A stretch of DNA of 58,745 nt from a virus (Duplodnaviria > Heunggongvirae > Uroviricota > Caudoviricetes). Below the pieces are notes generated by a model. The model had not been told where the DNA came from, did not search any database, and was given only the letters and a program-made list of their open reading frames with translations. The first letter of the stretch is position 1, and the number at the start of each line of letters is the position of its first letter. The stretch is from the IMG/VR virus record IMGVR_UViG_2531839662_000025. One strand, given 5' to 3'. The position numbers and the translations under genes are program-made. Below, piece by piece: positions 20,398 through 54,878 of this stretch.

Positions 20398-20582
20398 GTA
20401 TCTGTATTGTTTTAATGCTGATACACACCGTTTTTTGATACAGTGATTCGACCTACCATCGCGAAGCATTTTTTATTTCTTGTGTGTAACAATCTGACGA
20501 GGTGAGCACTCAAAGAGATAAGAGGCAGTAGAAATTTCGATCCCCCCTGAATGCAATTTTTCGTATATATATACAAAACAGT

Positions 20583-20741: not shown

Positions 20742-20816
20742 ATCCCTGAAAGTGGGTGCCGATAATACTGAAAATTTATTCCATTAAATGAGCATTATCC
20801 TCTCTCATCCATTCCG

Positions 20817-23547: not shown

Positions 23548-23846
23548 CAGTACACCCCCACATCACGATAAACCGACCAGAGCGCAGAAATAGCCATAGG
23601 CAGTTCAGACTGCTCCACTGGTGAAACTGCTTCCCTGTTCTCGTACAGGAAAGCGATGTACATCAGGCAACCAACACGCATTGCCGGGGTAAATTCCAGC
23701 CCGTCTTCAAAACGTTTCCCGATATGCTTCTGGCAGGCTTCCAGCGCCGCATCGGTATACATTTTCAGAAGTTCGCCTTCTCCGGAAAAGTCATCAAGGC
23801 GAAGATGTGCCCTGACCTCATCAGGTGTAATTTTTTCTTCACTCAT
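23547..23846 (-). CDS. head-tail connector protein (gp6-like)
   Basis: Track ORF 23547-23927; likely start MSEEKIT at 23846. Confidence 0.6.
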   Translation of the reverse strand: MSEEKITPDEVRAHLRLDDFSGEGELLKMYTDAALEACQKHIGKRFEDGLEFTPAMRVGCLMYIAFLYENREAVSPVEQSELPMAISALWSVYRDVGVY

Positions 23847-25053: not shown

Positions 25054-25054
25054 A

Positions 25055-25615: not shown

Positions 25616-25664
25616 CGGTGTACTCCATAAAGCTGAAAAAGGAGGCCGAAGCCCCCTTTGCTCA

Positions 25665-26810: not shown

Positions 26811-27104
26811 GAAGGTTTTCTCGTATTGGTTAAGATTCAGGACGTGAAACCAACACGGAGGGAGCGCCGCCCGACACTCTCGGCATCTCGCAGATCAACC
26901 CGGCATCGCGCAGGGGGTCAGGCGGCATTGTGGCGGCTCACGTCTGAGTGCCACACGCCAACATATACATAAAAATCAGTATGTAAACATCAGCCAGAAT
27001 CACCGAACAACCTGGAACAACCACGAACAAATAATTTACAAAACCTGAAAAAATAAATAAGCTGTTCCGTACATTTTCTGCTCGTCAATCAGGAGGAACG
27101 AACT

Positions 27105-27578
27105 ATGTCAGAAAATGAACTGAAAAAAGCAATGTTCATTCAGCAACGATTGCAGATTCTCCACCTTGGTAAACACTATGATGAGTTCAGCGATTCTTAC
27201 GTGTATGCCTGGGAGGCAGATGTTTATCCTTTCTTGCAGGATGGCGACGGAAGTATTCCTACTCGCCCACATGAAATTTACGAAGAGTTTTTCGGCACAT
27301 CTAAAAACAAAGCTAAAAAGATATACGATCGTCTGTGCAAAGCCTGGCACGACCGGGAGGCGCTCACATTCTATAAACTAGAAAGTGAATATGGTGTAAC
27401 AAGTAGCAGCATGCACGGATGGACACGAAGTGATTTACTTCACATTTGCCGCTATCTGTATCTTGAGGGGTGTTTCGATAAAGATTTCTGGGAAACATTA
27501 CTGGAAAACGGAAAATGCCCAAGCGAAGCACTTTACCTTAGCGATGAATTTAATCGCGATACAGAGATCGACTTCTAA
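27105..27578 (+). CDS. hypothetical protein (accessory cargo gene of the satellite)
   Basis: 157-aa ORF on the opposite strand to all flanking satellite genes, lower GC, own terminator; no family recognised. Confidence 0.6.
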   Translation: MSENELKKAMFIQQRLQILHLGKHYDEFSDSYVYAWEADVYPFLQDGDGSIPTRPHEIYEEFFGTSKNKAKKIYDRLCKAWHDREALTFYKLESEYGVTSSSMHGWTRSDLLHICRYLYLEGCFDKDFWETLLENGKCPSEALYLSDEFNRDTEIDF

Positions 27579-27580
27579 AA

Positions 27581-27614
27581 ATAATGGCCTGGAAAATACC
27601 AGGCCATTATTATT
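27581..27614. terminator. bidirectional rho-independent terminator
   Basis: 10-bp stem AATGGCCTGG/CCAGGCCATT with T/A runs on both sides, between convergent genes. Confidence 0.6.
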
Positions 27615-27902
27615 CTACCGTTTCACGGGATCACGCATTCTGCGCCTTATTTTCCACAGATATTCGATCATCGCTTCCACCTGCTCACGGTTGGTTGCGA
27701 AAATTTCCCCGGTCAGTGAGCTACGCAGAAAATCATGATGATCCACAAAAAATAACGCATCGGAAGAAAGCAGCCGGCGATATTTTTTTACTGTCGTGGT
27801 TTCCAGATCATCAAAACCATGAAACTTTTTATGTTGCTGAACTTCTTCAAATGTCACAGGCATGTTTCCTCCTGCTACCACGATACCAGAAACAGTTAAC
27901 AA
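27615..27902 (-). CDS. hypothetical protein
   Basis: Track ORF; likely start MPVTFEEV at 27863. Confidence 0.4.
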   Translation of the reverse strand: MLTVSGIVVAGGNMPVTFEEVQQHKKFHGFDDLETTTVKKYRRLLSSDALFFVDHHDFLRSSLTGEIFATNREQVEAMIEYLWKIRRRMRDPVKR

Positions 27903-28204
27903 CCGTTATCAATTATCCCCTTTTTTTTCGGGTAGTTCCTGAACATCTCACCGCCAGGTTTCTGTAAGCCCATCCCGGTATGTGTGCGGTTTATGGCCTC
28001 TTTCAGTATTCCGAAATTATCCGGTATGACTGGTTGGCGCGCTGCCTTACGGATACATTCCGCGCGACGCTTTGCCACCTGTTCGCGCTCCTTGTCAGTG
28101 CTCACCAGCCACATAACATCAGCCCAACGTGCCGCCGCTCTCCGGTACAGCCCTTTAGCCTCCAGTTCTTCCGCTTTGCTGTCTTTAATCATGCTGTACC
28201 TCAC
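27896..28204 (-). CDS. PerC-family transcriptional activator homolog
   Basis: About 100 aa containing AEELEAKGLYRRAAARWADVM, the PerC/Pch signature as I recall it. Confidence 0.55.
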   Translation of the reverse strand: MRYSMIKDSKAEELEAKGLYRRAAARWADVMWLVSTDKEREQVAKRRAECIRKAARQPVIPDNFGILKEAINRTHTGMGLQKPGGEMFRNYPKKKGIIDNGC

Positions 28205-28207
28205 TGC

Positions 28208-28633
28208 TTAAAACGGTATCCCGTCCCCGTACGGATCATCGTGCTGGCCTGTCTGTTGTTTTGCCCTGTTCAGTGCGTCAGTAGCCTGGCCCTGCTGGCC
28301 TTTTTTGCCGCCCGGTCGCGCCGTTCGCGCACTGATTACGCTGTCTGCGATGACCTGCCAGCCCTGCCGCATTTCGCCGTTCTGGCCTGTCCACTGGCTT
28401 ACCTGCATGTTACCCGCCACACTCACCAGTTCGCCTTTCTGGTGTTTTGCCAGTGCATCGGCCTGTCTGCCAAACGCCAGGACGGATAACCACATCGTCG
28501 CCGTTCCGTCATCTGCCTGGCTGCACGGCAGGGGAACCGCCATACTCGCCATAGCCATTTGTGTCCCCTTGCTGGTGGTCTTTAACTGCGGGTCAGCCAC
28601 CAGCCGCCCGTAAGCCGCTATCTGTGCTGTCAT
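28208..28633 (-). CDS. single-stranded DNA-binding protein-like
   Basis: 141-aa ORF with Gly/Gln-rich linker and acidic C-terminal tail ending DGIPF. Confidence 0.55.
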   Translation of the reverse strand: MTAQIAAYGRLVADPQLKTTSKGTQMAMASMAVPLPCSQADDGTATMWLSVLAFGRQADALAKHQKGELVSVAGNMQVSQWTGQNGEMRQGWQVIADSVISARTARPGGKKGQQGQATDALNRAKQQTGQHDDPYGDGIPF

Positions 28634-28696
28634 GCTGTCTGTTCTCCGGTTTTAACGTTGATTGTTACGCTTGTTTACACCCTTACGGTGAAATTC

Positions 28697-28820
28697 TGCG
28701 GGTTATAATCGCACTTTTGCGGGTTATAACTGCCGTTTTGCGGGTTACGTGCGGGTTATTGATTTCCTTTTTATTCATACAGTTAATGCACTTATACACA
28801 GGATAACCCGCATAACCCGC
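28697..28820. repeat. putative satellite replication origin: GCGGGTTAT iterons at 21-bp spacing plus inverted copies
   Basis: Direct copies at 28697, 28718, 28739, 28751; inverted at 28803, 28812; immediately downstream of primase. Confidence 0.65.
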
Positions 28821-28843
28821 AACTTTTCACCTCACACAGGGGG

Positions 28844-30964
28844 TTAATCTTCTGCCTCAGGCTGGAACATCAGCACGTAAAAAACATGCTGCTTCCCCCC
28901 AATTTTGCCGAGCGCCTTTTTCTTGTAACGGCGATCGTTACCCGCTTCCAGCATTCCGGCAGCACTCAACGCGCGGGCAAAGTGAGACGGATTAAATCCC
29001 TGTGCTATCTCACCCTCAAATACATGCGGGAACGTGTAAAAACGGAACTCGTCATCTTCGTTTCTGATACTCCCCTTTCTGTATCCGGCAAGCTCTTTAA
29101 TCGGTAAATCACGCTCGTCGGTGTTGGGCCACGGAAGGTATCTGCTGAATCCGAACGACGCTAAAAAAGCCTCTGCCTGTTCAACCATCTGTTTAAACTC
29201 CCTGTTACCCGTGCCGAACTCCTTCACCCAGGCATTAAAATTATGCTGAATGGCATCGCGGCACGCCTGAACATCCCAACCAGTAATATGGACGGAAAGC
29301 ACCAGCGCCGACTCCAGCATGGCGAATCGTTCCCCCACACGGTGAACCTGTTCGCCGTAACTCTCCGGTATCAGGTTGCGCCACCGTTCACGGCATGCCC
29401 TTACCGTATCCTTTGCCTCCTGCTGGTGGTCTGCCAGCCATTTAACCCATTCACGCCCCGCCGCCCCGTGATTTTCTGTCCAGGCATCCTTTAACGCGTC
29501 TGCGTGTGCCTTTCCGGTGCTGTATTCGTGAAACTGCGTGGCTTTTTCCATTGGCACGTTAAGCAGGCGGACAAGCTGCCCCGCCTTGACTTTTATCCCC
29601 TCCGTTTTGAGGAATGTCTCAACGTCCATTTCTCCGGTGCTGATTGCCACCGTGCGCCAGTGTTTGATCTCCCTGTTGCCGCCGTCCTTCGCCCCCTGTA
29701 ATTTCCCCGAACCGTTAAACAGCGTATAAGCCGACGTGGACACTTCCCGCGCGTTTCCGGCCTGACCTATTTCATCTAGGGGTAATAGCCCGTCATTGTG
29801 CGCCTCTGCCTCGTTGGCGATGCCTAACGCTGTACCGTACCAGGTCAGCCGTTGCGCGTCCGGCTCTCCCCATAAACTGGATGCGATGTTCTGTGTGGTG
29901 GTTTTCCCTGCCGATGACTGTTCGAAAAGATGTACCCCGAAGCCGTCAGCGCCCACCAGCCCGATTAATGGTGCAGATAACGATACCGCCACACCCAGCA
30001 TCATGGACGGATTACCACCAGCCAGCCGCGCAACGGTATCGCGCCAGCCCTCCGCCGTTCCTGCCACGGAATAACCATTAACAGCAGCCGTTTTTCCGGT
30101 AAACAGGACTGGCTTTTCGCAATCACCAATGACCGAACCGTCCGGCATGATGTACGCGCCAAAATGCCAGCCCGTTGTTGTGCTTAACTGCCATTCCTCA
30201 TGGTTTCCGCTTAACTGCATCCAGTCAGCCAGGATAGCCCTGTATTTGCCGTTGGTTGTCACGTTCAGGCCGTGGTCTTTCAGCAACCGCCAGCCGTCAC
30301 GGTCGCCAATGCCACCACATGGGATCGCCATTGTGATGACTTCATGGTTTGCTGGCTTTTTCCAGCGCATCACGCGGTAATGCTCTTTACCGATCGTCCC
30401 CGTTCCCAGTAGTTCAAGCGGAGAACATAACCACGTCTCAGGCCGGATAATTTCGCCTGACTGCTTGTCCACTTTTGGCGTTACCCAGAAAACACCATCG
30501 GCGCGGCTTTCAACGCGGGGCTTTAATTCATCATCGCCCTGGCTTTCTGTGATTTTTTTCTTTAAGGGCAACACCAGACTTTCCCCGCGCTCGTATTCGT
30601 CTTTCAGTCGGGCAAGCTGTGGTGTCCAGTCCTCCAGTAAATCGCCGTTCTCGTCACAAAAACAGGCTTCCTTAACACCAGCCACTGCCAGCAGGGTTTC
30701 AATCTGTAGCGCCAGTTTGTCATCCAGTTTTCCGGCACGTCTGACGATGGCGCGTGACCGACCATCATCCACAATACGCAGGTTTTCCAGATTACCCAGG
30801 TCACGCCGTCCGAGATAAACAGGTGGTATTTTGTCGCCGCGCTTTCTGGCTTCTCCGCCCTGCATGTAATGCTCTGCATGGCTGTATGCGTCATCCCCCG
30901 CAAAAATCACTGCATCCTCGCCTTTATCTTTCGGTAACAGTTTTACGTTCGGTGCCAGTTTCAT
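28844..30964 (-). CDS. primase/helicase (P4 alpha-like replication protein)
   Basis: 706-aa ORF with Walker-type NTPase region (SSAGKTT). Confidence 0.7.
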   Translation of the reverse strand: MKLAPNVKLLPKDKGEDAVIFAGDDAYSHAEHYMQGGEARKRGDKIPPVYLGRRDLGNLENLRIVDDGRSRAIVRRAGKLDDKLALQIETLLAVAGVKEACFCDENGDLLEDWTPQLARLKDEYERGESLVLPLKKKITESQGDDELKPRVESRADGVFWVTPKVDKQSGEIIRPETWLCSPLELLGTGTIGKEHYRVMRWKKPANHEVITMAIPCGGIGDRDGWRLLKDHGLNVTTNGKYRAILADWMQLSGNHEEWQLSTTTGWHFGAYIMPDGSVIGDCEKPVLFTGKTAAVNGYSVAGTAEGWRDTVARLAGGNPSMMLGVAVSLSAPLIGLVGADGFGVHLFEQSSAGKTTTQNIASSLWGEPDAQRLTWYGTALGIANEAEAHNDGLLPLDEIGQAGNAREVSTSAYTLFNGSGKLQGAKDGGNREIKHWRTVAISTGEMDVETFLKTEGIKVKAGQLVRLLNVPMEKATQFHEYSTGKAHADALKDAWTENHGAAGREWVKWLADHQQEAKDTVRACRERWRNLIPESYGEQVHRVGERFAMLESALVLSVHITGWDVQACRDAIQHNFNAWVKEFGTGNREFKQMVEQAEAFLASFGFSRYLPWPNTDERDLPIKELAGYRKGSIRNEDDEFRFYTFPHVFEGEIAQGFNPSHFARALSAAGMLEAGNDRRYKKKALGKIGGKQHVFYVLMFQPEAED

Positions 30965-31260
30965 TTTTTACCTCTGGATGCGCTGAGCATGCTTTTTATT
31001 TTCTTAATATTTTCCCGTGCTTTTTCCCTGCTGGTGGGCTTACCGCGTGTTGCGTTCTGTACCAGAGAAAAATCACGCCGGAACTGATAAACAGGCATCA
31101 CGCAGTCATAGCCGTACCCATCACGGCGGTAAGTAACACACCGTCCCGCCACGCTTTTAATCGTTACAGTGCCGCCGTATTTATCTTTGAAAATATCGCC
31201 GGGGCGGATTTCAGGCCGAGCGGGGCCGCTGGCAGTAAAGCCAGAATTTTTCTGTTTCAT
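30961..31260 (-). CDS. hypothetical protein
   Basis: 99-aa ORF overlapping primase start. Confidence 0.45.
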   Translation of the reverse strand: MKQKNSGFTASGPARPEIRPGDIFKDKYGGTVTIKSVAGRCVTYRRDGYGYDCVMPVYQFRRDFSLVQNATRGKPTSREKARENIKKIKSMLSASRGKK

Positions 31261-31265
31261 GGTTT

Positions 31266-31493
31266 TTATTCCGCGTTTATTTTTTTATCGTGAATTTCGA
31301 TCGCTTTATTTAATTCGACGATTACCGTATCGAGTAATGAAATAAACGCACCAGCAAGATTAGATTCACGTTCATCTTCCGGCGCATCACTTAAACCATC
31401 AAGCCAGATAAGCAATATTTGCCGCAAACATTCACTGTTAGTCAGTGCGTTTTCTGCATGGCTCATTGATTTTAAATAACTGTCATCATGCAT
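31266..31493 (-). CDS. hypothetical protein
   Basis: 75-aa acidic ORF. Confidence 0.4.
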   Translation of the reverse strand: MHDDSYLKSMSHAENALTNSECLRQILLIWLDGLSDAPEDERESNLAGAFISLLDTVIVELNKAIEIHDKKINAE

Positions 31494-31689
31494 GGCTCAC
31501 CCCCTGACGAATACGGGCGGCGAATACCATCACACAGCCATCAGGAGATTGCTGGCGTGCTTCCTGTTCGCTGGTGGCCTCGATGTGAATTACGCGCGGT
31601 TGTGCCGTACTCAGGGCGATAAAACGCCAGATATATTTATTCAGGTTGTGCGAGTCCCGCCCTTGCGGGTGTGTGGTATGATTTAACAT
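31486..31689 (-). CDS. hypothetical small protein (67 aa)
   Basis: C-terminal part of the 357-aa track ORF; begins MLNHTTHP just downstream of the divergent promoter region. Confidence 0.35.
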   Translation of the reverse strand: MLNHTTHPQGRDSHNLNKYIWRFIALSTAQPRVIHIEATSEQEARQQSPDGCVMVFAARIRQGVSHA

Positions 31690-31766
31690 AGCTACCTCGA
31701 TACTCTTGCTATCGTTGGTGGTTAGACGCCCTGCATGTGTTGCGAGCACTGCGGGGCGTTGCTTAA

Positions 31767-31867
31767 TTTGAGTGACAAAACTCAAACTGTGCGCACAGAT
31801 TAAAATCATGTGTGCGCACATGTCAATACTTAACATCTCATTTTTTTTGCTGTATTGTGTGCGCCCA
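31767..31867. promoter_or_regulatory. divergent regulatory region with palindromic operator-like sites (TGTGCGCACA)
   Basis: Perfect palindromes at 31788-31797 and 31808-31821, half-site at 31856-31867, inverted repeat at 31767-31786. Confidence 0.5.
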
Positions 31868-31894
31868 TAAAGTCCATTTAAGTGAGGTGCATCA

Positions 31895-32092
31895 ATGTCT
31901 AGCGGTAACACAAACAACAAATCAGCAAAGAAAAATATTCGATTCCCACATGAGCTTATAGATGGGATTGATGCCAGCGTTGAACAAGAAAAATTAACTA
32001 ATCCTAGTGCTAATTTTTCCGCATGGGTCTTAGATGCCTGTGGACGCAAATTAAAATATGAACAGCGCCGGAAGGCCAAAGAATCAGAATAA
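31895..32092 (+). CDS. small putative DNA-binding regulator of the satellite
   Basis: 65-aa ORF transcribed away from the operator-containing promoter region. Confidence 0.4.
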   Translation: MSSGNTNNKSAKKNIRFPHELIDGIDASVEQEKLTNPSANFSAWVLDACGRKLKYEQRRKAKESE

Positions 32093-32134
32093 TCACTATC
32101 AGCGCCGTGGTGTGAGTAACTACGGCGCATTGCT

Positions 32135-32323
32135 ATGCAGGACAACACAATGACCGATAAAGAATTGACCAAAACATTATCACCGACACGGAAAAGACGG
32201 CGCAGAAAGATAGAGCATGAATCAGAAAGATTCGCACCTTGTTCGTTTGCTCTTGAGAAATTCCTTAAAGAGCGCAGGAAAAAGCTCTCGTTGCAAACCC
32301 TGGAACGAACCAAATCTGACTGA
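32135..32323 (+). CDS. small basic hypothetical protein
   Basis: 62-aa ORF followed by a plus-strand terminator. Confidence 0.35.
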   Translation: MQDNTMTDKELTKTLSPTRKRRRRKIEHESERFAPCSFALEKFLKERRKKLSLQTLERTKSD

Positions 32324-32389
32324 TCACATTGCCCACCAGCCGCAAATGTGGCATTGTTGGTGATGCTTTTGTTTTCCCTTGTTCCCACT

Positions 32390-32419
32390 GGCGACCCTTT
32401 TGCGGTCGCCTTTGTTTTG
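32390..32419 (+). terminator. rho-independent terminator
   Basis: GGCGACC/GGTCGCC stem followed by a T-run. Confidence 0.55.
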
Positions 32420-32703
32420 CCTGTTATCCGGCAATAGTGGCGCTTCGTCACCTGTCTGATATAATTCCACAGCTTATATTCATTTTTTGCGCAGTAGGTT
32501 AATTGTTCGCAAGGGCGCTCCGGCAACGGGGCGCTTTTTGTTTTTACCCACCAGCACAATAAAAATCTTCATTTTCCATTTTTGTAAAATTTCATGCTTT
32601 CCGGACGACTGGTCATATGTCATTTTTTAGCAGAAGATTTTGCCTTGCTGGTGGGTAGCTTCCCGGTCAACACGATGTACCGTATAATCAACACCGCGTG
32701 TGG

Positions 32704-33282
32704 TTACTGAATACGCTCACCAAAGTAAAACTCAGGCTGGTATTCACGTATCAGCCTTTTTTCTTCTTCCTCCAGCTCACGCTTTTTGCGCTTACATGCC
32801 TGTAGCTCCCTCCCCTTCTCACTGGCACTTATCTGGTATTGCTCTTTGCGGCGGGAAAAATCCTGTAATGCGCCCCACGGGATACCATAAGCCCCCGTTT
32901 TTCTGATACCCGGTATCACATTTCTGAATACCCAGTTACTGAAACGATGAGCAAATGTGCCAGGCGTCGTTGCTTTGCGGCTGCGGGCTATTAGTTTGTA
33001 GAAACCTGACTCGGAGATAATGCTCATATTCTGATTTCCTCCGGGGGTGTAAGTTAAATTTACTCCCTTTTCGTCATCATCAAGCATCTGCAACGCCGTA
33101 CGCGAATTGGTCAGTTCCAGCGCAGCACAAACATCCTTTGCAACAAACCACGGATCGCCGTTTAGATACACCACACGAACATCCACGCCATCAAAGCGCA
33201 GAACGACCAGATCACGAATATCACAGAATTTTTTCACATGACGTGCGTCACCCTTGCCCGTCACGGCAATATTTTTATTCAT
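32704..33282 (-). CDS. Bro-N domain protein (antirepressor-like)
   Basis: 192-aa ORF with Bro-N-like N-terminal region. Confidence 0.55.
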   Translation of the reverse strand: MNKNIAVTGKGDARHVKKFCDIRDLVVLRFDGVDVRVVYLNGDPWFVAKDVCAALELTNSRTALQMLDDDEKGVNLTYTPGGNQNMSIISESGFYKLIARSRKATTPGTFAHRFSNWVFRNVIPGIRKTGAYGIPWGALQDFSRRKEQYQISASEKGRELQACKRKKRELEEEEKRLIREYQPEFYFGERIQ

Positions 33283-33301
33283 TGCTTTTTACCTCACATA
33301 C

Positions 33302-33328
33302 AAAAAACCCCGCATTGCGTGGTGCGGG
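33302..33328 (-). terminator. rho-independent terminator
   Basis: 7-bp GC-rich stem followed by U-run on minus strand, after the AlpA-like gene. Confidence 0.6.
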
Positions 33329-33339
33329 GTTGTCGGTAA

Positions 33340-33618
33340 TTACTTATTGGCGTTTTTGTATGGGCTGTTTACTTCCTTTACTCCTGGCGGATGCATAACC
33401 CACCAGAGCACATCAGAGAGCAACCAGGAAACAGACACTTTCCCTAAATGAGCACGAGCAGGAAATGCTCCCTCCTGTTCAAGTACCCAACGTCTGCTTC
33501 TTGAAAGCCCGGTACGATTGGCACACTCATGTTCGCGTATACGGCGATCATACGGTTCGCCATGATCTTTCAGAATCTGAATGCGTTCTTCGGGTGTAGG
33601 ATAAATAAATTTTTGCAT
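33340..33618 (-). CDS. AlpA-family regulator / excisionase-like
   Basis: Track ORF 33340-33648; likely start MQKFIYP at 33618; small HTH protein. Confidence 0.55.
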   Translation of the reverse strand: MQKFIYPTPEERIQILKDHGEPYDRRIREHECANRTGLSRSRRWVLEQEGAFPARAHLGKVSVSWLLSDVLWWVMHPPGVKEVNSPYKNANK

Positions 33619-33681
33619 AAAAATATCACCTATAAAAAAACCCGCCAAAAGACGGGTTGATTATATCTCATTTAATTTAGC

Positions 33682-33915
33682 TCAGGGTTTCCATTCACCT
33701 TTTACCCATTCCAGCACCTCAGATAAGCGCCAGACTTTTGTTTGTGGGCCAATACATATTTTTCGTGGAAATTTTCCTTCCTTTTCAAGTAACGATCTGT
33801 GTCTCCTGCCAAGAGCGGTTAACCATGCACATTCATCTTCCTTAATCATCCTGTCGATTGTTTCATCATTTTCAAGTTCTTCACGCGTAACTATTTGAAT
33901 CATTACTGTCACCAC
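33682..33915 (-). CDS. AlpA-family regulator / excisionase-like
   Basis: 77-aa HTH ORF next to integrase. Confidence 0.55.
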   Translation of the reverse strand: MVTVMIQIVTREELENDETIDRMIKEDECAWLTALGRRHRSLLEKEGKFPRKICIGPQTKVWRLSEVLEWVKGEWKP

Positions 33916-35104
33916 TAATTTGCTTATTCAGATAGTCGTACCACCAGTTCATAGCTTCTTTTTTTCTGTCCATATACTGGCTTCTGTTATAAACCCCGGC
34001 AACACCGCCTAATGTGTGCCCAAGCAACTGTTCAACCACATTATGTTCAAAACCATGATCACTTAGTTTTGTGGCAAACACTCTTCGCATATCATGCGCC
34101 GTCCATTTCTCCGAGTGTTTCATCCTTTTCCATGTCTTACCGATAGTTACGCTTGCCGTACACTGACGCATATCAAACCCAATCACATTTTCTTTGTTAC
34201 CTGTTATTTTTTTTAACGTAACTAACCAGTTAAACATGCCATCAGGAATCGGTCTGATTATTTCCCTGCCATTTTTGCTATGATCAGCGGGAACGCGCCA
34301 TAATTTCTTATCAAAATCCCACTCTACCCAGGACGACAGTAATACTTCTGACAGTCGACAACCAAAAACTACCAGGAAACGTAAAATAATTCGGTTTTCA
34401 TATGATAATTCGTGATTGTCATAATCAGTATTAATACTTCGCCATAAATCTCTGATTTCATCATCTGTTAAAACCCTGCTTCTTCGCGCAGACTTTTTTC
34501 CCACATCACAGACCTCAAGATCATCAATTTCATGACTAATCGCGTATTTTCTTACCCTACAAAATTTAAGCGCCTGTTTTGATATACGCAACAAAGCTCC
34601 GGCCTGTACAGGTGCTACTTTTTTTATTTTGTCAAAACACTTAATCCACATAGATATAGAGCAATCACTAAGTGGTACATGACCAATCACCGGATAAATA
34701 TGTTTACCAAAGCACTGCCTGATATGTTCTGCTCCCCTACGCTTATCCATTGCATAATTATCAAGCCAGTATTCAAGTGCCTCACGAACGGTAACAGGTT
34801 GCAAGGTGGCTTCCCGTTCAATTTTTATCTGAATCCGTGGATCTCTGCCCTCCGCAAGCCAGGTTCGACACTGATCGCGCATCTCTCTCGCTGATTTGAG
34901 ACTCAGATCAGGATATTTTCCAAGTGTCAGCCAGATGGGCGCGGTTCCCCTTCCCGCCAGTCTGTAAAAGAAAACAAAACTAACACATCCGTATTTACTG
35001 ACCCGTACCGAAAGCCCGTTACCATCAGCGATGGTTTCCTGCCTCTCACTCCTGCGTCCAAGCAGGGAACGAAGTTTTTTATCGCTCAGTTTGTTTAGCG
35101 CCAT
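33881..35104 (-). CDS. tyrosine integrase (P4-type)
   Basis: Track ORF 33881-35140; likely start MALNKLSDKKL at 35104; P4-type N-terminal arm-binding pattern and C-terminal catalytic region. Confidence 0.8.
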   Translation of the reverse strand: MALNKLSDKKLRSLLGRRSERQETIADGNGLSVRVSKYGCVSFVFFYRLAGRGTAPIWLTLGKYPDLSLKSAREMRDQCRTWLAEGRDPRIQIKIEREATLQPVTVREALEYWLDNYAMDKRRGAEHIRQCFGKHIYPVIGHVPLSDCSISMWIKCFDKIKKVAPVQAGALLRISKQALKFCRVRKYAISHEIDDLEVCDVGKKSARRSRVLTDDEIRDLWRSINTDYDNHELSYENRIILRFLVVFGCRLSEVLLSSWVEWDFDKKLWRVPADHSKNGREIIRPIPDGMFNWLVTLKKITGNKENVIGFDMRQCTASVTIGKTWKRMKHSEKWTAHDMRRVFATKLSDHGFEHNVVEQLLGHTLGGVAGVYNRSQYMDRKKEAMNWWYDYLNKQISGDSNDSNSYA

Positions 35105-35124
35105 GTGATTTATAACCCGTTTTT

Positions 35125-35145
35125 GCAATACACAGTGCAATACAC
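35125..35145. repeat. arm-type repeat GCAATACACAGTGCAATACAC
   Basis: Direct repeat of the motif at 20377-20397. Confidence 0.5.
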
Positions 35146-35275
35146 AAATGATGAAAACAGCCAGAACCTTCCAGAAAAAACAAAAACGACGAACAAGAAA
35201 AAATCTTTTTCTTTCATTTGGTTACTAAAAAAATCAGGACAGGTCGCACTGTTGTTACGGCGTGATGTTACTTTC

Positions 35276-35290
35276 TTGGTAAAAAAATTC
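35276..35290. repeat. putative att core (right junction of satellite)
   Basis: TTGGTAAAAAAATTC at the point where the host terL reading frame is lost. Confidence 0.5.
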
Positions 35291-36303
35291 ACCCGCGCAG
35301 AGACCTGCTCCTTCGCTTTTTTCGCCAGACGACGCAGATCATCCCAGCGTTTACAGATGCCCAGGCCAGGATTCGCTTTCTGCCAGACCGTTTCATCAAA
35401 CGGATCATCTCCCTCATCGAGCGTGTAAATGATCGCAAAGTAGGAGTCGTCTTTTACCGCGCCCTCCACGTCGCTGTTATAGCCTCGCAATACCTTAATG
35501 GCGTAATCGCGCTGCTCGTAGCAAATCCCTTCCTTGTTAAAGCCAGCCGTGGTGATGCCAAATAACAGAGACTGCAGACGGGCACCGGTTGCCGTTTCCA
35601 GAACGTCCCACACGTCACGGGTTTTATGAGCATGCAGCTCATCAATAATGGCGCAGTGGATGTTCAGACCGTCCAGGTTGTTTGCATCCGAGGAAAGCGG
35701 TTCAAATTTTGATGCGCTCTGCTCCTGGTAAATCGCCAGCTTGTTGAAATCAAACAACCGCCCGAGTGTCGACCGGGCTTTTCTGACCATATTTTTGGCG
35801 TCTTCAAACACAATTCTGGCCTGGTCACGCGTGGTTGCGGCTGAATACACCTCAGCACCGCCTTCACCATCTGCCCCCGTCATATACAGGCCGATACCCG
35901 ATGACAGGGTTGATTTTGCGTTTTTACGGGCGACTTCGTTGTACGCCGTCCGGAACCGGCGCACCATCACCGGACGTCCGCTGCCATCGCTGCGTATGAC
36001 AACTTCCCCGGTCTCTTCATTGACCAGCGGAATGACAAAACCAAAAATATTAATGAGGATAAATACATGCCAGTCCATCAGTTCAATGGGCTGGCCTGCC
36101 AGCGCCCCTTTTACATGGGGCACAAATTTGTAGAAATTCAGGATGTGCTGCGCACGGGGTTCACTGAAATAAATCCCCCGCTCTTCGCCGTACTTCAGAT
36201 CATCAAGAAAACGCTGGCAGGCCAGACGGACAAATTCGCCAGCGACAATTTCTCCTGCAACAACACGTTCGGCGTAGCGGATCCCGTCAGCCACTTTTGC
36301 CAT
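35283..36303 (-). pseudogene. terminase large subunit, N-terminal (ATPase) fragment of the host prophage
   Basis: Track ORF 35110-36303: first ~345 aa are TerL-like, then the frame runs into satellite sequence and becomes low-complexity. Confidence 0.8.
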
Positions 36304-40270: not shown

Positions 40271-40345
<75 letters not shown>

Positions 40346-40348
40346 ATA

Positions 40349-40424
<76 letters not shown>

Positions 40425-44648: not shown

Positions 44649-44717
44649 AAGCGCGGGTGCGTTGAGGATGCCGACACATCAGAGGTGGCGGGAGATTACT
44701 CTCCCGCCTGGTCACTC

Positions 44718-44870
44718 TTACTTCTCAGATTCGTAGTCCACGAAGACAGCAACCTCCGTCTGGCCGGTTCGGATTCGTACCTCACAGAGGTCTTTCCTCG
44801 TTACCAGTGCCGTCACTATGACGGTTAAACAGATGACGATCAGGGCGATTAACATCGCCTTTTGCTGCTT
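44718..44870 (-). CDS. hok: Hok/Gef-family type I toxin
   Basis: 50-aa MKQQKAMLIALIVICLTVIVTALVTRKDLCEVRIRTGQTEVAVF; track ORF extends in frame upstream to 44930. Confidence 0.85.
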   Translation of the reverse strand, partial: KQQKAMLIALIVICLTVIVTALVTRKDLCEVRIRTGQTEVAVFVDYESEK

Positions 44871-45132
44871 CATAGCCTGCTTCTCCTTGCCTTTCGGCAC
44901 GTAAGAGGCTAACCTAGATTTGCCGTTCATAGATTGAGCCTCAGATTAATGTTAAGCGTCTTGCAGGACGCGTAATGTTAACTGGGGCTTTTCTCTATCT
45001 GCCTTTTGGTGTTCATGCCTGAGACAGATAGCCTCAAGCACCCGCAGTCATTCTACTTAACTAAGATTTCCCCGCAAACCGTTTTTGTCCGGCACAGTAA
45101 ATATCCAACTAAACCAATGGCGTTCGCTGTAT

Positions 45133-47441: not shown

Positions 47442-47471
47442 GTAAGCGGCTCGCCAGAACCGTATTGATAT

Positions 47472-49043
47472 TTACTGAGAGGTCAGATCAACTTTCCAGG
47501 GCAACAGATCGCGTACCCGGTTTGCCGGCCAATCCTGGATATGCTCAATGACGTAACGCAGCCATTTTTCTGGTTCCACATTGTTCAGACGGCATGTGCC
47601 GATCAGCGAGTACAACACCGCCGCATGTTCGCCACCGCTGTCGGAACCCGCGAAGAGCCAGTTTTTCCGGCCTACGGCCACTCCCCGTAAGGCGTTCTCT
47701 GCGATGTTGTTGTCGATTTCCACCCAGCCATTACTGCAGTACACGTTCAGGGCCTCCCACTGTTTCAGCAGGTATGCGAACGCTTTTGCCGTATCCGAGT
47801 GACGCGACAGTGTTTTCATCTGTTCCTGTATCCAGTCATACAGTGACTGCATCAGTGGAGCCGCTCTGGCTTTTCTTGCTGCCAGACGCTGTTCTGCTGA
47901 ACATCCCCGGACTTCTGCCTCGATGACATACAGTTCACCGATACGCTGCAGGGCTTCCGTGGTGATGTCGGTGGGCACTCTTGCATGCACATCGTGGATT
48001 TTTCTCCGGGCATGGGCCATACACGCGGCTTCCGTTATTCTGCCGGATTCGTATAACGCCCGGTAACCACCGTAAGCATCTGCCTGAAGCACACCGCTGT
48101 AACCGGCCAGGTGATTCTGTGGATGGATACCTTTCCGGTCCGGGCTGTACGCGAACCAGACCGCCGGGGGCATCTGTGAACCGGCGTTACGGTCATCACG
48201 GACATAGACCCACAGCCGGGCAGTTCTTGTTTTACCACTGCCCGGCTCCTGGACCGGAACGGGGATATCATCCGCATGGACTTTACCGGGCATCAGCACA
48301 TACTGGCGCAGGACGTCATACAGCGGCTCCAGCAGTTCAGCAACGGCACCTGTCCAGCGCCCCAGCGTGGCGCGGCTCAGCTCCACGCCCTGGCGACGGT
48401 ATATTTCTGACTGGCGGTATAACGGCAGATGGTCTGCATATTTCCCGGTAACAACATGGGCCAGAAGCCCCGCTCCGGCATAACTGCGTGCAATGGGTTT
48501 TGAAGGTACTGTTGCCTGCACGATATGGTCGCACCGACAACAGGCCAGTTTCGGACGTTGTGTTTCGATAACCTTAAAGGCGCTGCTGATAAGCTCCAGT
48601 TGCTCTGACACATCACACCCCAGAGGACTGAGGTCACCACCACAGGCCGGGCAGCATTCCTCTTCCGGCCGGATGACCCGGGTTTCACGGGGAAGTGAGG
48701 CCGGTAACGGTTTACGGGCTGAAGACTGGCGCAGGGCGGATGGCAGTACCGGGTCATATTGCTCACCCAGCGTTTCCGCCATTTCTTCCTGAAGTGCGCT
48801 GATTCGCTCCTGTGCTTCCTGTATCTGCCGTTCGGTTTTAGCGCGAAGTTTTTCTGAGCTTTTACCGAACTGCATGCGCTGCAGTTTCGCAACCAGCGCC
48901 TTCAGCCGGTTGATTTCGGAAGCATAAGCCGCCACCCGCTGTGAGAGCAGGCGGTTGTATTTCGCCATCTGGCGGATGGTGTCCTGTTGCGTCTGCAACA
49001 GTGCCCGCAGGCGGGCATTCTCATGAGCAAGTGAGGTGTCCAT
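47472..49043 (-). CDS. tnpC: IS66-family transposase TnpC
   Basis: 523-aa ORF with N-terminal leucine zipper, CCPACGG zinc motif and DDE-type core. Confidence 0.9.
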
Positions 49044-49062
49044 ATCCTCACTTTACAACGGG

Positions 49063-49411
49063 TTATATGCGGATGCCAGCGCGTTCCGTTCGTTTCGGGT
49101 GCTTCCAGTCGATGCCTTCGAGAAGCATGGACAACTGAGCCGGAGTAAGGTGAACCTTTCCATCGCGGGTGACCGGCCAGACGAAGCGGCCCCGCGTCCA
49201 GGCGTTTGGTGAAGAGGCACAGTCCGTCACTGTCAGCCCACAGCACTTTTATCTGGTCACCCCGGCGTCCGCGGAAGATGAACAGATGCCCGGAGAACGG
49301 GTCATCCTTCAGGACGTTCTGAACTTTTGAGGCCAGGCCGTTAAAGCCATTTCGCATATCGGTGATACCGGCAACCAGCCAGATACGCGAACCGGCAGGG
49401 AGAGATATCAT
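49063..49411 (-). pseudogene. tnpB: IS66-family TnpB, apparent +1 frameshift in a G-run
   Basis: Track ORF 48902-49411 leaves the expected frame after KRL; the shifted frame gives RFVWPVTRDGKVHLTPAQLSMLLEGIDWKHPKRTERAGIRI and stops just before tnpC. Confidence 0.5.
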
Positions 49412-50061
49412 CAGTGGCTGCTCCCTTTCATTTCGCGGATAAGTGTCTGTAATAACGCCGGTGTCAGTTCACCTTTCAGCCTGAGAGTTCCGGCCGGCAG
49501 AACCAGCTCGCAGCACAGACTGTCTGGCAGTGTATTTATCTGTTCAGGTATCTGCACTGGTGCCGGGATTTTATTATCCGGCTCCGGAGTTAACGTCACG
49601 GGAAGTAGCGATGTTTCATGTTCGCCGGGCGGTTGCAGGCCACCGTTACGCCAGAGATGCCGCCAGTTAAAGAGCAGGTTATCGTTAATTCCATTCTCTC
49701 GAGCTATTTGTGCGACACAGGCACCGGGTAAAAGAGTTTGCTGAACCAGTCTCCATTTAAACTCCGGTGAAAATCGGTTCCGGCGGGGTTTCTCTGCTTT
49801 CACAGGCTGAGTCACGGTCGGGGCTGAAGGGTATCGCCCCGGGAAAAGAGCCCGGGCCAGTTGCCCGCAGGAATATTCACCGGAAAGAGGCCAGTCAGTG
49901 AATACCTGGTGAAATCGCCTCACCAGAGAAAAAATGGTGGTTTTGCTGACACCGGTCTGCGCAGAAATGCGCGGGTACGACAGTGACTCGTCAAATCTCA
50001 GCTGTAGCACACGCAGGATCAATTCCGGATTGTCTGCCAGTACCGCTTTTCGTGCATTCAT
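49411..50061 (-). CDS. tnpA: IS66-family accessory protein TnpA (orf1)
   Basis: 216-aa HTH ORF at the start of the IS operon. Confidence 0.7.
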   Translation of the reverse strand: MNARKAVLADNPELILRVLQLRFDESLSYPRISAQTGVSKTTIFSLVRRFHQVFTDWPLSGEYSCGQLARALFPGRYPSAPTVTQPVKAEKPRRNRFSPEFKWRLVQQTLLPGACVAQIARENGINDNLLFNWRHLWRNGGLQPPGEHETSLLPVTLTPEPDNKIPAPVQIPEQINTLPDSLCCELVLPAGTLRLKGELTPALLQTLIREMKGSSH

Positions 50062-51455: not shown

Positions 51456-51881
51456 TTAGTGCATCACCACGGCATTTCCCGCCGGACCACCACGATTCAT
51501 CTGATTGAAACCAGCGATCGCCACTGCGACAAAATCATCAGCGTCTCTCACCAGTCGTTCCCGCATCTCCACCAGCTCCCGAAAATAGGCTGAACTGTGG
51601 CTGCGCATTCGGGCCACCAGCAGAGGTGGCATTGCCTTTTCGATCGCCGGTAACAGCGCCTGAATTTTTTTAACCGCATCAGGGGTGTCTTTCTCCACCC
51701 AGCGGAAAATTTTCTGAGTATTGCGAGCCAGGGCTTCCGGATGCCTGTCGTCATATAGCTCCGGGAACGTCATACCAAGCTCAAAATAAGCCTGGGTTAT
51801 TTCAGCTGCCGGAACTTTTTCACCGTCCGGATGCGCCCAGGCATTCATCGCCATGCGGATGTGTTCATGCTTGATTTTCAT
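51456..51881 (-). CDS. YdaT-like protein (CII-like regulator)
   Basis: 141-aa ORF closely resembling Rac YdaT as I recall it. Confidence 0.6.
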   Translation of the reverse strand: MKIKHEHIRMAMNAWAHPDGEKVPAAEITQAYFELGMTFPELYDDRHPEALARNTQKIFRWVEKDTPDAVKKIQALLPAIEKAMPPLLVARMRSHSSAYFRELVEMRERLVRDADDFVAVAIAGFNQMNRGGPAGNAVVMH

Positions 51882-52093
51882 TAATCATTCTTTCCTTCGT
51901 TCGAGGTGCTATCCTGCTTCTTGTAAAGTTCTGGGTTGTATTTCAATTCACCGTTAGTAATTTCATCCAGTTCCATTGCGCGAAGTTTGGGAATAACTGC
52001 TTTCCACCGCACAACAGCCACATGTGAAATTCCAAGAGCCTCAGCTACTAGTCGCTTTTTTTTGAAATAGCGCAGAACATCATCTTTGAACAT
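51881..52093 (-). CDS. Cro-like HTH regulator (YdaS-like)
   Basis: 70-aa HTH ORF divergent from the cI-like gene. Confidence 0.65.
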   Translation of the reverse strand: MFKDDVLRYFKKKRLVAEALGISHVAVVRWKAVIPKLRAMELDEITNGELKYNPELYKKQDSTSNEGKND

Positions 52094-52121: not shown

Positions 52122-52184
52122 GGTAACAATAGTTACATAGCAATGTCAACCATAGCAACATCACTTGGTAGTAACATTGGTTAC
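52122..52184. promoter_or_regulatory. operator sites in the cI/cro-like divergent promoter region
   Basis: GGTAACAATAGTTAC (52122-52136) and GTAACATTGGTTAC (52171-52184); palindromic half-sites GTAAC/GTTAC. Confidence 0.55.
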
Positions 52185-52859
52185 ATGAAAAACACTATCA
52201 GCGAACGTATTCGGAATCGTCGAAAAGACGTTGGATTAACCCAACAGCAGGTTGCGAAAGCAATCGGCATATCTCGTGTATCCGTAACAAAATGGGAAAA
52301 TGGCTCTTCAAAACCTGACGGTGAGAATTTGCATCTACTGTCAAAATTGCTTTCCAAATCTCCTGAATGGATTCTTTATGGAAAGGACTGTCACGATAAA
52401 ACCGATGATCTGCGTCTGAATCAGTACCCTTACATTAGTGACAACATCGCCCGGTTGCCCGTTTTAACGTGGGAACAGGCTGGTTATTGGGATATGAGTT
52501 GTCCAGTAACCGAGATTCCTGGTATTAAGAATTGGGTTGATGTCATGACAAAAACCGCTGAAAACTCTTTTTTATTGCATGTTGAGGGAGATGCGATGAC
52601 AAACTCTAACGGCCTCCCAACCATCCCCGACGGATCTACCGTGCTGATCACACCATGCTCAAGTAACATTAGAGAACTGGTGGGAAAAATAATCTTAATC
52701 CAATTGGAAGGAACGCCAAACGTAACACTAAAAAAAGTTGCGATTGACGGACCAAACATCTATCTGTTGTCACTGAATCCGCTTTACAAACCCATCGAAC
52801 TGAATGGTGGTTACACCATTAAAGGTAAAGTTTCACAAATACATCAATACTTAGACTGA
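52185..52859 (+). CDS. CI-like repressor (HTH plus S24 LexA-like peptidase domain)
   Basis: Track ORF 52086-52859; likely start MKNTISER at 52185 (alternative 52143). Confidence 0.75.
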   Translation: MKNTISERIRNRRKDVGLTQQQVAKAIGISRVSVTKWENGSSKPDGENLHLLSKLLSKSPEWILYGKDCHDKTDDLRLNQYPYISDNIARLPVLTWEQAGYWDMSCPVTEIPGIKNWVDVMTKTAENSFLLHVEGDAMTNSNGLPTIPDGSTVLITPCSSNIRELVGKIILIQLEGTPNVTLKKVAIDGPNIYLLSLNPLYKPIELNGGYTIKGKVSQIHQYLD

Positions 52860-52864
52860 GTCAG

Positions 52865-52891
52865 AACCCGCATTCATTGCGGGTTTTTTAT
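52865..52891 (+). terminator. rho-independent terminator after cI-like gene
   Basis: AACCCGC/GCGGGTT stem followed by TTTTTT. Confidence 0.65.
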
Positions 52892-52930
52892 GCTCTCGAA
52901 TGTACCTTTTGCAACACTGTATTGACTCGA

Positions 52931-52950
52931 AAGGTAACTCTTGTTACCTT
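52931..52950. promoter_or_regulatory. operator, perfect palindrome AAGGTAAC-TCTT-GTTACCTT
   Basis: Same GGTAAC half-site as the cI/cro operators, overlapping a TTGACT -35-like hexamer at the head of the leftward operon. Confidence 0.55.
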
Positions 52951-53050
52951 AACGACATACCAACCCACCCCGCCCCACAGAACGCAGGGCAATACTTCGA
53001 GTTACCAGGCAGTGGTCAGGGGTTAAGTAGCCAGCCCGAGGCGTAAGAAC

Positions 53051-53185
53051 ATGACGGCAGGGTTCAACTTTAACTATGCAGCAGGTTTTTGTTCCGCTAC
53101 CCCGGCGTTAAGGGGAAACAGCACTGAGAGGAATCAGTATGCAGAAACGAGAACCCGTCATCATCGCGCCAGACTATACCGATGA
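53051..53185 (+). CDS. possible small ORF (44 aa, YdfB-like position)
   Basis: Hand-translated MTAGFNFNYAAGF...; overlaps the start of the next gene in another frame. Confidence 0.25.
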   Translation: MTAGFNFNYAAGFCSATPALRGNSTERNQYAETRTRHHRARLYR

Positions 53186-53357
53186 TGAACTTTATGAGTG
53201 GATGCGCCAGAAAATTACGGCAGCGCAGGACCTGAAGTGGGCCAATGAAGCCAGGGCTAAGCAGGCTGAAAATCTGTCCGCTCTGGAGCAGGATATCACC
53301 AGGCTGGAAAAAGCAGCGGCATTAAGCATTGCCAGAATGATTACATACCCGCGTTAA
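53139..53357 (+). CDS. YdfC-like small protein
   Basis: 72-aa ORF resembling Qin YdfC as I recall it. Confidence 0.55.
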   Translation: MQKREPVIIAPDYTDDELYEWMRQKITAAQDLKWANEARAKQAENLSALEQDITRLEKAAALSIARMITYPR

Positions 53358-53492
53358 TAGCTAACCAACGAGGCTAAGGTTGGTAATTAAGGAGTTCTCC
53401 ACGGGTCAGGTGGAGTGCGTGCGCCGGACACGGGTGAGCATCCGGCACGTTCTTTAAAAATCTGGATAGTCCCAACTTATTTAAACGGTTAA

Positions 53493-53927
53493 TTATCTTG
53501 AGTTCATCCAGAACTTATTATTGCAAGCGGGGCAAAAAGTACGAAAATGAGCATCAAAGCGCATTATTTCCATTGGCTGAAGTACAGATATTACCTTTTT
53601 TCCAAAGCATTGTGGGCAAAGATGCACAGTTATCTCAGTATCGCCTATAAATTGCTTCTTGGAATATACAAGGGTTCCAGAATCAAGCTTGTTAAGCTTG
53701 TAACCTTCCGCCTGTCGCTGAAAATCTTCTGTCTCTGCAATTTTTGCTTTGAGATGCATTATCTCTTCATCACGAAAGCGGATCGCATCGCAAAGAGAGA
53801 AGCATTCCGCCTGAAGCGTGATTAGTTTGTTCTGAAGTTCAATAGTTGCGGCTTTAACTTCTGCATCCGTTTTTGCGTCATTAATAACCTTAGCGAGACC
53901 AGCTGTCTCCTTTATCGCAGCCATAGC
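53493..53927 (-). CDS. hypothetical coiled-coil / zinc-ribbon protein (reverse-oriented moron)
   Basis: Track ORF 53493-54068; likely start MAAIKETAG at 53927; C-terminal CPQC...CPAC; AT-rich; antisense to the surrounding plus-strand operon. Confidence 0.5.
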   Translation of the reverse strand, partial: AMAAIKETAGLAKVINDAKTDAEVKAATIELQNKLITLQAECFSLCDAIRFRDEEIMHLKAKIAETEDFQRQAEGYKLNKLDSGTLVYSKKQFIGDTEITVHLCPQCFGKKVISVLQPMEIMRFDAHFRTFCPACNNKFWMNSR

Positions 53928-54249
53928 TGCTGACAGTTCTGCTATCACGTTGAGTACTCTTCTCGTTGTTGGGGATATCCGGATTATACGAATTTCTTGT
54001 TGTTGGGGAATAACAGGAACCACCTCGCCTGACGTGGTTAAAAGCAGGCACACAACGCGAAAGCGCACGGCGAGGTAGCTGGTTCATAGATAGCCTGTCG
54101 TTAAATTTTCGTCGACAGTGCGCTTCCGGTTGTGGCACTCCGCGAAATGGCGCGGCGGTAAGTATGGCGGGGTTATCCTTGCCCCATTAGTGGCACCGGG
54201 TTGTCAGGTTGACCATACGCCTGAGTGACAACCCCGCTGCAACAACCCA

Positions 54250-54306
54250 TGTTGATTACCTTTTTGGCGGCATCAGTTTCATTGCTGGCTGATGTCCGCC
54301 CTTTTT
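54250..54306 (+). ncRNA. dicF: DicF-like small RNA
   Basis: TTTGGCGGCATCAGTTT...CTGATGTCCGCCCTTTTT resembles E. coli DicF from memory, including terminator hairpin and T-run, immediately upstream of dicB; ends approximate. Confidence 0.45.
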
Positions 54307-54489
54307 AAAGTGAATTTTGTGATGCGGTGAATGCGGCTCAGCGCACGCGGAACAGTTAAAAAGGCCAGTTGACTTCCGTATTGGTTCTTATGGGTGGGTT
54401 CTCTGTATCCGGCGTTAATTATTAACTGGTTAACGTCACCTGGAGGCACCAGGCACCGCATCACAAAATTCATTGTTGAGGACGCGATA

Positions 54490-54678
54490 ATGGAAACGTT
54501 ATTACCAAACGTTAATACGTCTGAAGGTTGTTTTGAAATTGGTGTCAGAATCAGTAACCCTGTATTTACTGAAGATGCCATTAATAAGAGAAAACACGAA
54601 CGGGAGTTATTAAATAAAATATGCATTGTTTCAATGCTGGCCCGTTTACGTCTGATGCAAAAAGGATACTGGCAATGA
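54490..54678 (+). CDS. dicB: cell division inhibitor DicB
   Basis: 62-aa METLLPNVNTSEGCFEIGVRISNPVFTEDAINKRKHERELLNKICIVSMLARLRLMQKGYWQ, near-identical to K-12 DicB as recalled. Confidence 0.8.
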   Translation: METLLPNVNTSEGCFEIGVRISNPVFTEDAINKRKHERELLNKICIVSMLARLRLMQKGYWQ

Positions 54679-54878
54679 ATACTGCTATTGCCCTCACTCT
54701 GACTGTTTTTCTTAATACTGGCGAGCCTGTTGACATGGTTATTGACATTTACGGTTCAATGAAAGAATGCATGGCTGCCGCAGCAGAACAAAAAATTCCC
54801 GGTAACTGCTATCCGGTCGATAAAGTTATTCACATGGACAATAACGAAATCCCGGCAGGACTTAAAACAGCACCGTAA
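54675..54878 (+). CDS. YdfD-like small protein
   Basis: 67-aa ORF with hydrophobic N-terminus directly after dicB (ATGA overlap). Confidence 0.55.
   Translation: MNTAIALTLTVFLNTGEPVDMVIDIYGSMKECMAAAAEQKIPGNCYPVDKVIHMDNNEIPAGLKTAP

Follow-up and report, generated by a model that had tools for sequence, protein, structure and literature searches.

The Rip1 ('ring interacting pore 1') family of prophage proteins was characterised by Patel et al. in 2026 (Nature 651:1060) and, as summarised in a review (PMC13434031), Rip1 is harmless alone; 12 Rip1 monomers encircle the 11-mer small terminase, where contact with the terminase ring is made by the C-terminal half, an amphipathic helix forming the N-terminal part, and the complex makes pores in liposomes and cells such that the infected cell is dead before phage maturation. 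According to the same review, phages that escape Rip1 carry mutations in the portal (Pseudomonas phages) or in the small terminase (E. coli phages), and Rip1 relatives are widespread in proteobacterial prophages (PMC13434031); two short accounts are consistent with this (PMC12908700, PMC13601566). A cryo-electron microscopy structure of Rip1 from Escherichia phage HK446 with the small terminase of Enterobacteria phage T6 is available as PDB 9oox. Here we report that a 58,745-nucleotide stretch of Caudoviricetes DNA (IMG/VR record IMGVR_UViG_2531839662_000025; the whole stretch is referred to as the window) carries, in a cassette inserted between ydfC and a DicF-like RNA, a reverse-oriented gene encoding a 151-amino-acid protein, which is almost certainly a divergent full-length homologue of Rip1. 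The Rip1-type family had been characterised already, and the protein is a new, divergent member of it and not a new kind of system.

Family membership is carried by both sequence and fold. When a profile of 32 clade members was searched against the PDB sequences, 9oox_L (Rip1) was matched with an E-value of 2.3e-20 over profile positions 5-151 of 168, the second-best match having an E-value of 0.4, and a single-sequence search against the same sequences also gave Rip1 (9oox, E=6e-12). BLASTP against HK446 gp37 gave 27% identity over 142 amino acids (E=5e-17). For the predicted structure, 9oox_L and 9oox_M were the only Foldseek matches in PDB with E≤1e-3 (E=1e-7, probability 1.00, template-modelling (TM) score 0.77 when normalised to the target, root-mean-square deviation 3.3 Å over 122 columns). 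Both searches, homology and structure, had been proposed as a check in an earlier sequence-only reading of this DNA, and both led to Rip1. Moreover, L66, Y83, C111, C114, L123, C139 and C142 are invariant in an alignment of HK446 Rip1, HK620 HkaP, JBD30 gp30, the window protein and remote homologues, while G91, Y95 and Q124 are nearly invariant; the CxxC...CxxC tetrad is putatively metal binding. A literature search on 'hkaP' returned unrelated papers only.

The start codon at 53948 agrees with RefSeq WP_000559912.1, the N-terminal sequence MIAELSAAM is conserved across the 32 homologues, and GTG is the start in all six allele sequences compared, their first codons differing mostly synonymously. 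The sequence-only reading had described a minus-strand, AT-rich open reading frame (ORF) of 144 amino acids; strand and base composition were right (G+C is 41.7% in the ORF, 50.3% in the window and 56-58% in the flanking spacer), and the length is to be corrected to 151. The coiled-coil N-terminus that it expected is helical in the AlphaFold2 model (predicted local distance difference test score 90; helices 2-24 and 28-80), and the cysteine motif that it noted, CPQC (111-114)...CPAC (139-142), lies in the beta-rich four-cysteine domain that follows (strands 84-150). Within the clade, residues 1-95 share 71% pairwise identity and residues 96-151 share 41%; conservation of the N-terminal half with variability of the C-terminal half would be expected where a conserved pore module is fused to a sensor that diversifies. 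Hydrophobicity is highest in residues 1-22 (mean Eisenberg hydrophobicity approximately 0.4), with a modest helical moment of 0.15-0.34, which is suggestive only; an Ala/Gly-rich N-terminus (first ~20 residues) is also present in HK446 Rip1, and our hydrophobicity analysis predicted no transmembrane segment in the 151-amino-acid protein.

A word-indexed search identified 152 close homologues throughout the Enterobacterales, all annotated 'hypothetical', in hosts that include E. coli, Kluyvera, Citrobacter, Klebsiella, Enterobacter, Salmonella, Edwardsiella and Plesiomonas. An exhaustive profile search against clusters at 50% identity matched 2,659 clusters (E≤1e-3), with 860 reaching E≤1e-10; almost all are 145-175 amino acids long. 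The corresponding PHROGs family is phrog_1244 (1e-51), which is annotated without function; Pfam gave weak sub-threshold zinc-ribbon matches only, and PADLOC-DB v2.0.0 (2023), a catalogue older than the description of Rip1, gave 0 families at E≤1.

Comparison with the Qin prophage of E. coli K-12, i.e. a Qin-like prophage lacking the insert as the sequence-only reading had suggested, delimited the cassette. Homology to K-12 Qin breaks at 53448 and restarts at 54040, with 29 nt in K-12 and 591 nt here, and it is therefore a true insertion, the boundaries of which are accurate to ~10-25 nt; no target-site duplication was seen at the cassette junctions. The cassette is absent from K-12 Qin and present in 59 of the 5,426 complete E. 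coli genomes, as compared to 4,749 that have the operon region, while 43 records have the cassette region at ≥99% identity and DNA related to the N-terminal half of the gene is present in 734 genomes, many O157:H7 strains among them. A core member of the dicB operon would be found wherever the operon is and on the same strand. The cassette is missing from most copies of the operon and its gene is on the opposite strand, so it is not a conserved operon member; conserved membership of the operon, with a known function, was what the sequence-only reading had named as speaking against its interpretation as a moron. Rather, the data support a self-contained low-G+C moron composed of a conserved leader, the gene, and a hairpin with a T-run.

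With respect to the surroundings, the sequence-only reading placed the gene in ~900 bp between a YdfC-like gene and a DicF-like RNA (892 bp by our coordinates) and antisense to read-through from the operon, which is geometrically correct; the ydfC-dicF-dicB operon is on the window's + strand, and 'leftward' applies to it only by the convention of the lambda map. It also tied two GC-rich structured segments to the insert. These (53400-53448 and 54040-54250) turned out to be the conserved ydfC-dicF spacer, which is present in K-12 without the insert (the ydfC region, 53115-53448, has 95% DNA identity to K-12, and the right segment 88%); folding of the left segment is at the level of shuffled sequences (z=0.06), and the right segment, the DicF precursor, folds modestly better than shuffles (z=-2.25). 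The features of the region are listed in Table 1.

Table 1. Features of the rip1-like cassette and of the surrounding ydfC-dicF-dicB region (window coordinates)
Feature	Position	Strand	Basis and remarks
Cro-like gene	51881-52093	-	RefSeq
LexA-family repressor gene	52143-52859	+	RefSeq
ydfC, operon gene upstream of the cassette	53139-53357	+	RefSeq 'protein YdfC'
Spacer 3' of ydfC, conserved, GC-rich	53358-53448	+	Hairpin GCCGGA...TCCGGC; also in K-12 and Cn5; outside the insert
Inserted cassette relative to K-12 Qin	53449-54039		BLASTN breakpoints and junction sequences
Putative intrinsic terminator, imperfect AT-rich hairpin followed by UUUUU	53456-53512	-	Inverted repeat I1
rip1-like coding sequence, 151 amino acids, GTG start, TAA stop	53493-53948	-	ORF; RefSeq WP_000559912.1, 'hypothetical protein'
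Conserved leader with putative promoter	53949-54039 (~110-nt leader 53949-54060)	-	Alignment of 6 alleles
DicF precursor spacer, conserved, GC-rich	54040-54301	+	88% identity to K-12; outside the insert
Divergent DicF-like small RNA including terminator	54250-54301	+	Rfam DicF, 32.4 bits, E=7e-5; terminator-like site
dicB, operon gene downstream of the cassette	54490-54678	+	RefSeq; Pfam DicB 8e-39
Beyond dicB: DUF1482/ydfD-like gene, large exonuclease gene, excisionase-like gene, integrase gene			RefSeq

The ydfC-dicF spacer holds other cargo in other strains. In E. coli Cn5 (positions 3281-3866 of locus L002) a third cargo type is inserted right after the ydfC stop codon, encompassing a 124-amino-acid gene on the + strand (phrog_6937) and a 73-amino-acid gene on the - strand (phrog_7249); both PHROGs are without function, and these matches were the only ones as no Pfam family was found for either ORF. 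In E. coli AR_0077 (positions 1146-1466 of locus L010, - strand) the same slot has a different reverse-oriented ORF of 106 amino acids, unannotated and with hydrophobic segments, for which no Pfam or PHROG family was found and which may be another defence or exclusion cargo. This ORF is located behind the same 40-nt distal leader piece (window 54015-54055), which is present in ~2,000 E. coli genomes. As such, the spacer appears as a site where reverse-oriented defence cargo is exchanged.

The ~110 nt upstream of the GTG are near-invariant, and more conserved than the coding sequence, across six alleles, which come from four prophage backgrounds with different repressors. Alignment of these alleles identified a candidate -10 element at 53988->53983, which is TATAAT here and GTTAAT in four alleles, without a good -35, and twin direct repeats TCCCCAACAAC that bracket it (53965-53975 and 53999-54009). 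The leader may thus act as a promoter, and a weak Shine-Dalgarno sequence, AAGAG, precedes the start codon. The twin repeats were absent upstream of HK446 rip1, hkaP and JBD30 gp30. At the gene's other end, the arms of the putative terminator (53489-53512 and 53461-53484) overlap the stop codon and are followed by UUUUU (53460->53456), the fold energy of the hairpin being -15 kcal/mol (z=-2.1); its descending arm and tail, ATCCAGATT(T/G)TTAAAGA, are conserved in 6/6 alleles. Weak expression signals of this kind would suit a potentially lethal protein kept at a low level, and the unusually conserved leader offers a handle on how a potentially lethal pore-former might stay safe in a lysogen.

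To compare genomic positions we inspected 14 loci: the E. coli prophages of UMNF18, 99E2750, RM7190, O157:H7 86-24 and BS90R-A, the phages PhiR29_2, HK620, HK630, HK446 and JBD30, and loci from Edwardsiella (two), Klebsiella and Plesiomonas. All are in prophages or phages and in each of the 14 the gene is opposite to both of its neighbours, while it adjoins the immunity region of a lambdoid prophage in 13. The positional exception is JBD30, where the gene is reversed and has as its neighbours a 'DNA binding protein' gene, which probably encodes the small terminase, and the gene for the large terminase; the position of gp30 agrees with that described for Pseudomonas Rip1 (review PMC13434031). 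HK446 rip1 is reversed and directly beside N, which is the slot of sieB in lambda (34482-35036, + strand, between ral and N). Hence members of the Rip1 family are found in the classic sieB slot of lambdoid prophages, those of the N-less dicB/Qin type included. In Plesiomonas shigelloides (positions 5001-7152 of locus L019) the rip1 homologue is two genes away from a gene with a BstA_C domain next to the repressor, and two defence-type genes are thus clustered at the immunity region.

On the basis of the homology with HK446 and Pseudomonas Rip1, we consider it probable that the gene provides abortive-infection defence via a Rip1-type pore, carried on a moron cassette in the ydfC-dicF spacer. 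The lysogen would contain little of the protein, which would be expressed from the cassette's own weak signals (a -10 lacking a -35, a Shine-Dalgarno sequence that is poor, and GTG as the start codon) and would alone be harmless. Upon late gene expression of a superinfecting phage, the variable C-terminal four-cysteine domain would bind the small terminase or portal ring, the terminase or portal rings of such a phage being by analogy the most likely trigger of the pore. The bound phage ring would then template a Rip1 ring, and the conserved N-terminal helices would form a pore in the inner membrane leading to death of the cell before phage assembly ends. The sequence-only reading, which had proposed an uncharacterised accessory or defence gene, was in this respect right about a candidate defence gene; the family was no longer uncharacterised.

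Given its orientation, we infer that rip1 would be silenced by convergent early-left transcription upon induction, and antisense control of this sort reportedly applies to sieB of P22. A more far-reaching possibility, which we offer only tentatively and consider doubtful, is that the cassette is a recombination-mobile switch that operates in lysogeny only: the invariant leader and the obligatory reverse orientation would keep the gene on while the repressor silences the operon and off through convergent transcription at induction, sparing the terminase and portal rings of the prophage itself, and the C-terminal domain would be swapped to retarget the protein to other phage rings.

Several points weigh against the proposed Rip1-type defence. 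The window protein shares only 27-31% identity with any Rip1 tested by experiment, and with such low identity it could deviate from the tested proteins in trigger specificity and even in activity; the sources for the mechanism itself are a review, a conference report, a paper citing the primary work and the title of PDB 9oox. Scans of the protein against Pfam, NCBIfam and PADLOC gave nothing above threshold, there being no model for the family, and a consensus promoter scan of 52800-54700 found no sigma-70 site because the leader is without a good -35. Finally, some copies of the cassette are decaying, as judged from the defective carrier prophage (with a split terminase gene and frameshifts in several genes) and from the frameshifted sister allele in 99E2750, which is annotated as a 114-amino-acid remnant.

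The last of these points raises the question whether the gene is a decaying, non-functional passenger of a cryptic prophage. Although the 15-kb element that breaks the terminase gene, the IS679 copy in the early region, the frameshifted genes and the 99E2750 remnant all fit such a passenger, we regard it as very unlikely: the ORF here runs intact from the conserved GTG to a stop codon, with family-typical length and all invariant residues, leader and terminator are likewise intact, and the cassette region recurs at ≥99% identity in the 43 records given above. Moreover, defence genes are commonly retained by cryptic prophages. Defence or superinfection exclusion by a mechanism other than that of Rip1, either abortive as for SieB or by blocking entry, would mean that the Rip1-like fold has been reused for another trigger or effector. 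The location in the lambda sieB slot, the annotation by position of the family member HK620 HkaP as 'putative superinfection exclusion protein', and the low identity to tested Rip1 together with the highly variable C-terminal half would be in keeping with this. Nevertheless, it is unlikely in our judgement, as neither SieB nor any other Pfam or PADLOC family matched at E≤1, the predicted protein is without the transmembrane segment expected for an entry blocker, and the protein aligns collinearly with Rip1 over the full length and shares its fold and invariant residues.

A mainly regulatory role, in which the zinc ribbon binds nucleic acid or antisense transcription and the AT-rich hairpin modulate read-through into dicF and dicB, is highly improbable. 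The same gene is present in prophages without dicF or dicB (HK446, HK620, PhiR29_2, JBD30, Edwardsiella and Plesiomonas) and its function is therefore not specific to the dicB operon, even though the four cysteines form zinc-ribbon-like knuckles that give weak sub-threshold zinc-ribbon matches, the gene is convergent to the operon directly upstream of dicF, and the hairpin at 53461-53512 could act both ways. Pairing of the DicF-like RNA with the rip1 start region was also considered as a self-silencing link and dropped, since the predicted energy was no better than for shuffles (-34.6 kcal/mol compared to -29.9 ± 4.1; 13% of the shuffles were as good).

The Rip1-type defence that we favour gives a likely function to the 'hypothetical protein' WP_000559912.1, its relatives and phrog_1244, a family found widely among the prophages of E. 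coli (O157:H7 included), Klebsiella, Citrobacter, Salmonella, Edwardsiella and others. The clade represents a natural panel in which conserved pore modules are combined with diverse sensor domains, and with its help the terminase or portal rings that are recognised could be mapped.

With regard to the carrier, positions 53100-54700 are 100% identical to the chromosome of the porcine E. coli UMNF18, and the whole window is one prophage located between tRNA-Ser/hyaA and yccA. It is a defective Qin-like prophage, and its ydfC-dicF-dicB region is an N-less early-left operon of the Qin type. The match to Rfam DicF (32.4 bits) is below the gathering score of 48, and the DicF-like RNA is without 9 nt of the 5' region of K-12 DicF; this divergent RNA may accordingly have other targets than K-12 DicF. 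Between the DicF-like RNA and dicB (54313-54467) there is an STnc100-like match that is below threshold (33.5 bits, threshold 47).

The gene for the large terminase is in two pieces, with its 5' fragment at ~35260-36287, its 3' fragment at ~19553-20296 and a ~15-kb element (~20300-35260) in between. The first part of this element encompasses genes for an integrase, two helix-turn-helix regulators, BRO-N, an Icd-like protein, a DUF927 primase (frameshifted), the single-stranded DNA-binding protein SSB and PerC, followed by capsid, protease, portal, connector, HNH, TerS (frameshifted) and TerL genes. This gene order matches that described for proteobacterial capsid-forming phage-inducible chromosomal islands (cf-PICIs), and the element looks like a cf-PICI-like satellite integrated within a packaging gene of the prophage; HK446, the source of the solved Rip1 structure, is a helper phage of the prototype cf-PICI. 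The insertion sequence IS679 (IS66 family; tnpA, tnpB and a transposase gene, ~47456-50044) is located inside a DUF977 gene of the early-right region and the adjoining replication-type helix-turn-helix gene is frameshifted. In addition, the prophage has a hok/sok toxin-antitoxin locus at 44702-45043 (Rfam sok, 112 bits, 44868-45043 on the - strand, and a coding sequence of the Hok/Gef family) and two tRNA genes (40274-40424, annotated as tRNA-Thr and tRNA-Gly) upstream of the lysis genes, near which a TerB-family gene and a DNA methyltransferase pseudogene are present.

Among the known systems, SieB of lambda and P22 (superinfection exclusion B, an abortive infection system) is a positional, and probably a regulatory, analogue, being a single prophage-expressed gene reversed in the early-left operon beside N. 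SieB constitutes a membrane protein family, and the window protein has no sequence relationship to it (Pfam SieB did not match at E≤1). Zip, a Sie protein of Pseudomonas (JBD26), was considered as possibly the same thing and treated as unrelated, a decision made without sequence comparison. The proteins of Pseudomonas Mu-like prophages (JBD30 gp30, DMS3, D3112 orf25 and MP38 ORF25) are ~28% identical to the window protein over 95% of the length, have the same invariant residues and are encoded by genes that likewise are reversed relative to both neighbours, but these genes belong to the late (packaging) part of a transposable phage genome whereas the window gene is in an early-left operon. They are of the type of the Pseudomonas Rip1 that has been described between the small and large terminase genes. 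HkaP of HK620, HK630 and HK629 is a family member (30.6% identity, tblastn) that belongs to a different clade; its gene, located between cIII and hkaQ/N, is reversed within the pL operon, and the records list the product as a putative superinfection exclusion protein, a function given by position only in the records examined. In the HK620 annotation the terminator tL1 is inside hkaP on the opposite strand, and no such feature is annotated in the window.

The closest relative with a solved structure is HK446 Rip1 (gp37, YP_007111990.1), also a single small protein (164 amino acids compared to 151 here), which aligns over its full length and has the fold, the CxxC...CxxC tetrad and the Ala/Gly-rich hydrophobic N-terminus in common with the window protein. 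Its gene likewise adjoins the immunity region of a lambdoid prophage, where it is reversed in the early-left operon. The two differ in that the C-terminal (sensor) half is strongly different, such that the trigger may differ; moreover, the window clade has an invariant leader of its own, the twin repeats of which are absent upstream of HK446 rip1, and the host operon is of the N-less dicB/Qin type in the window while that of HK446 is an N-dependent pL operon.

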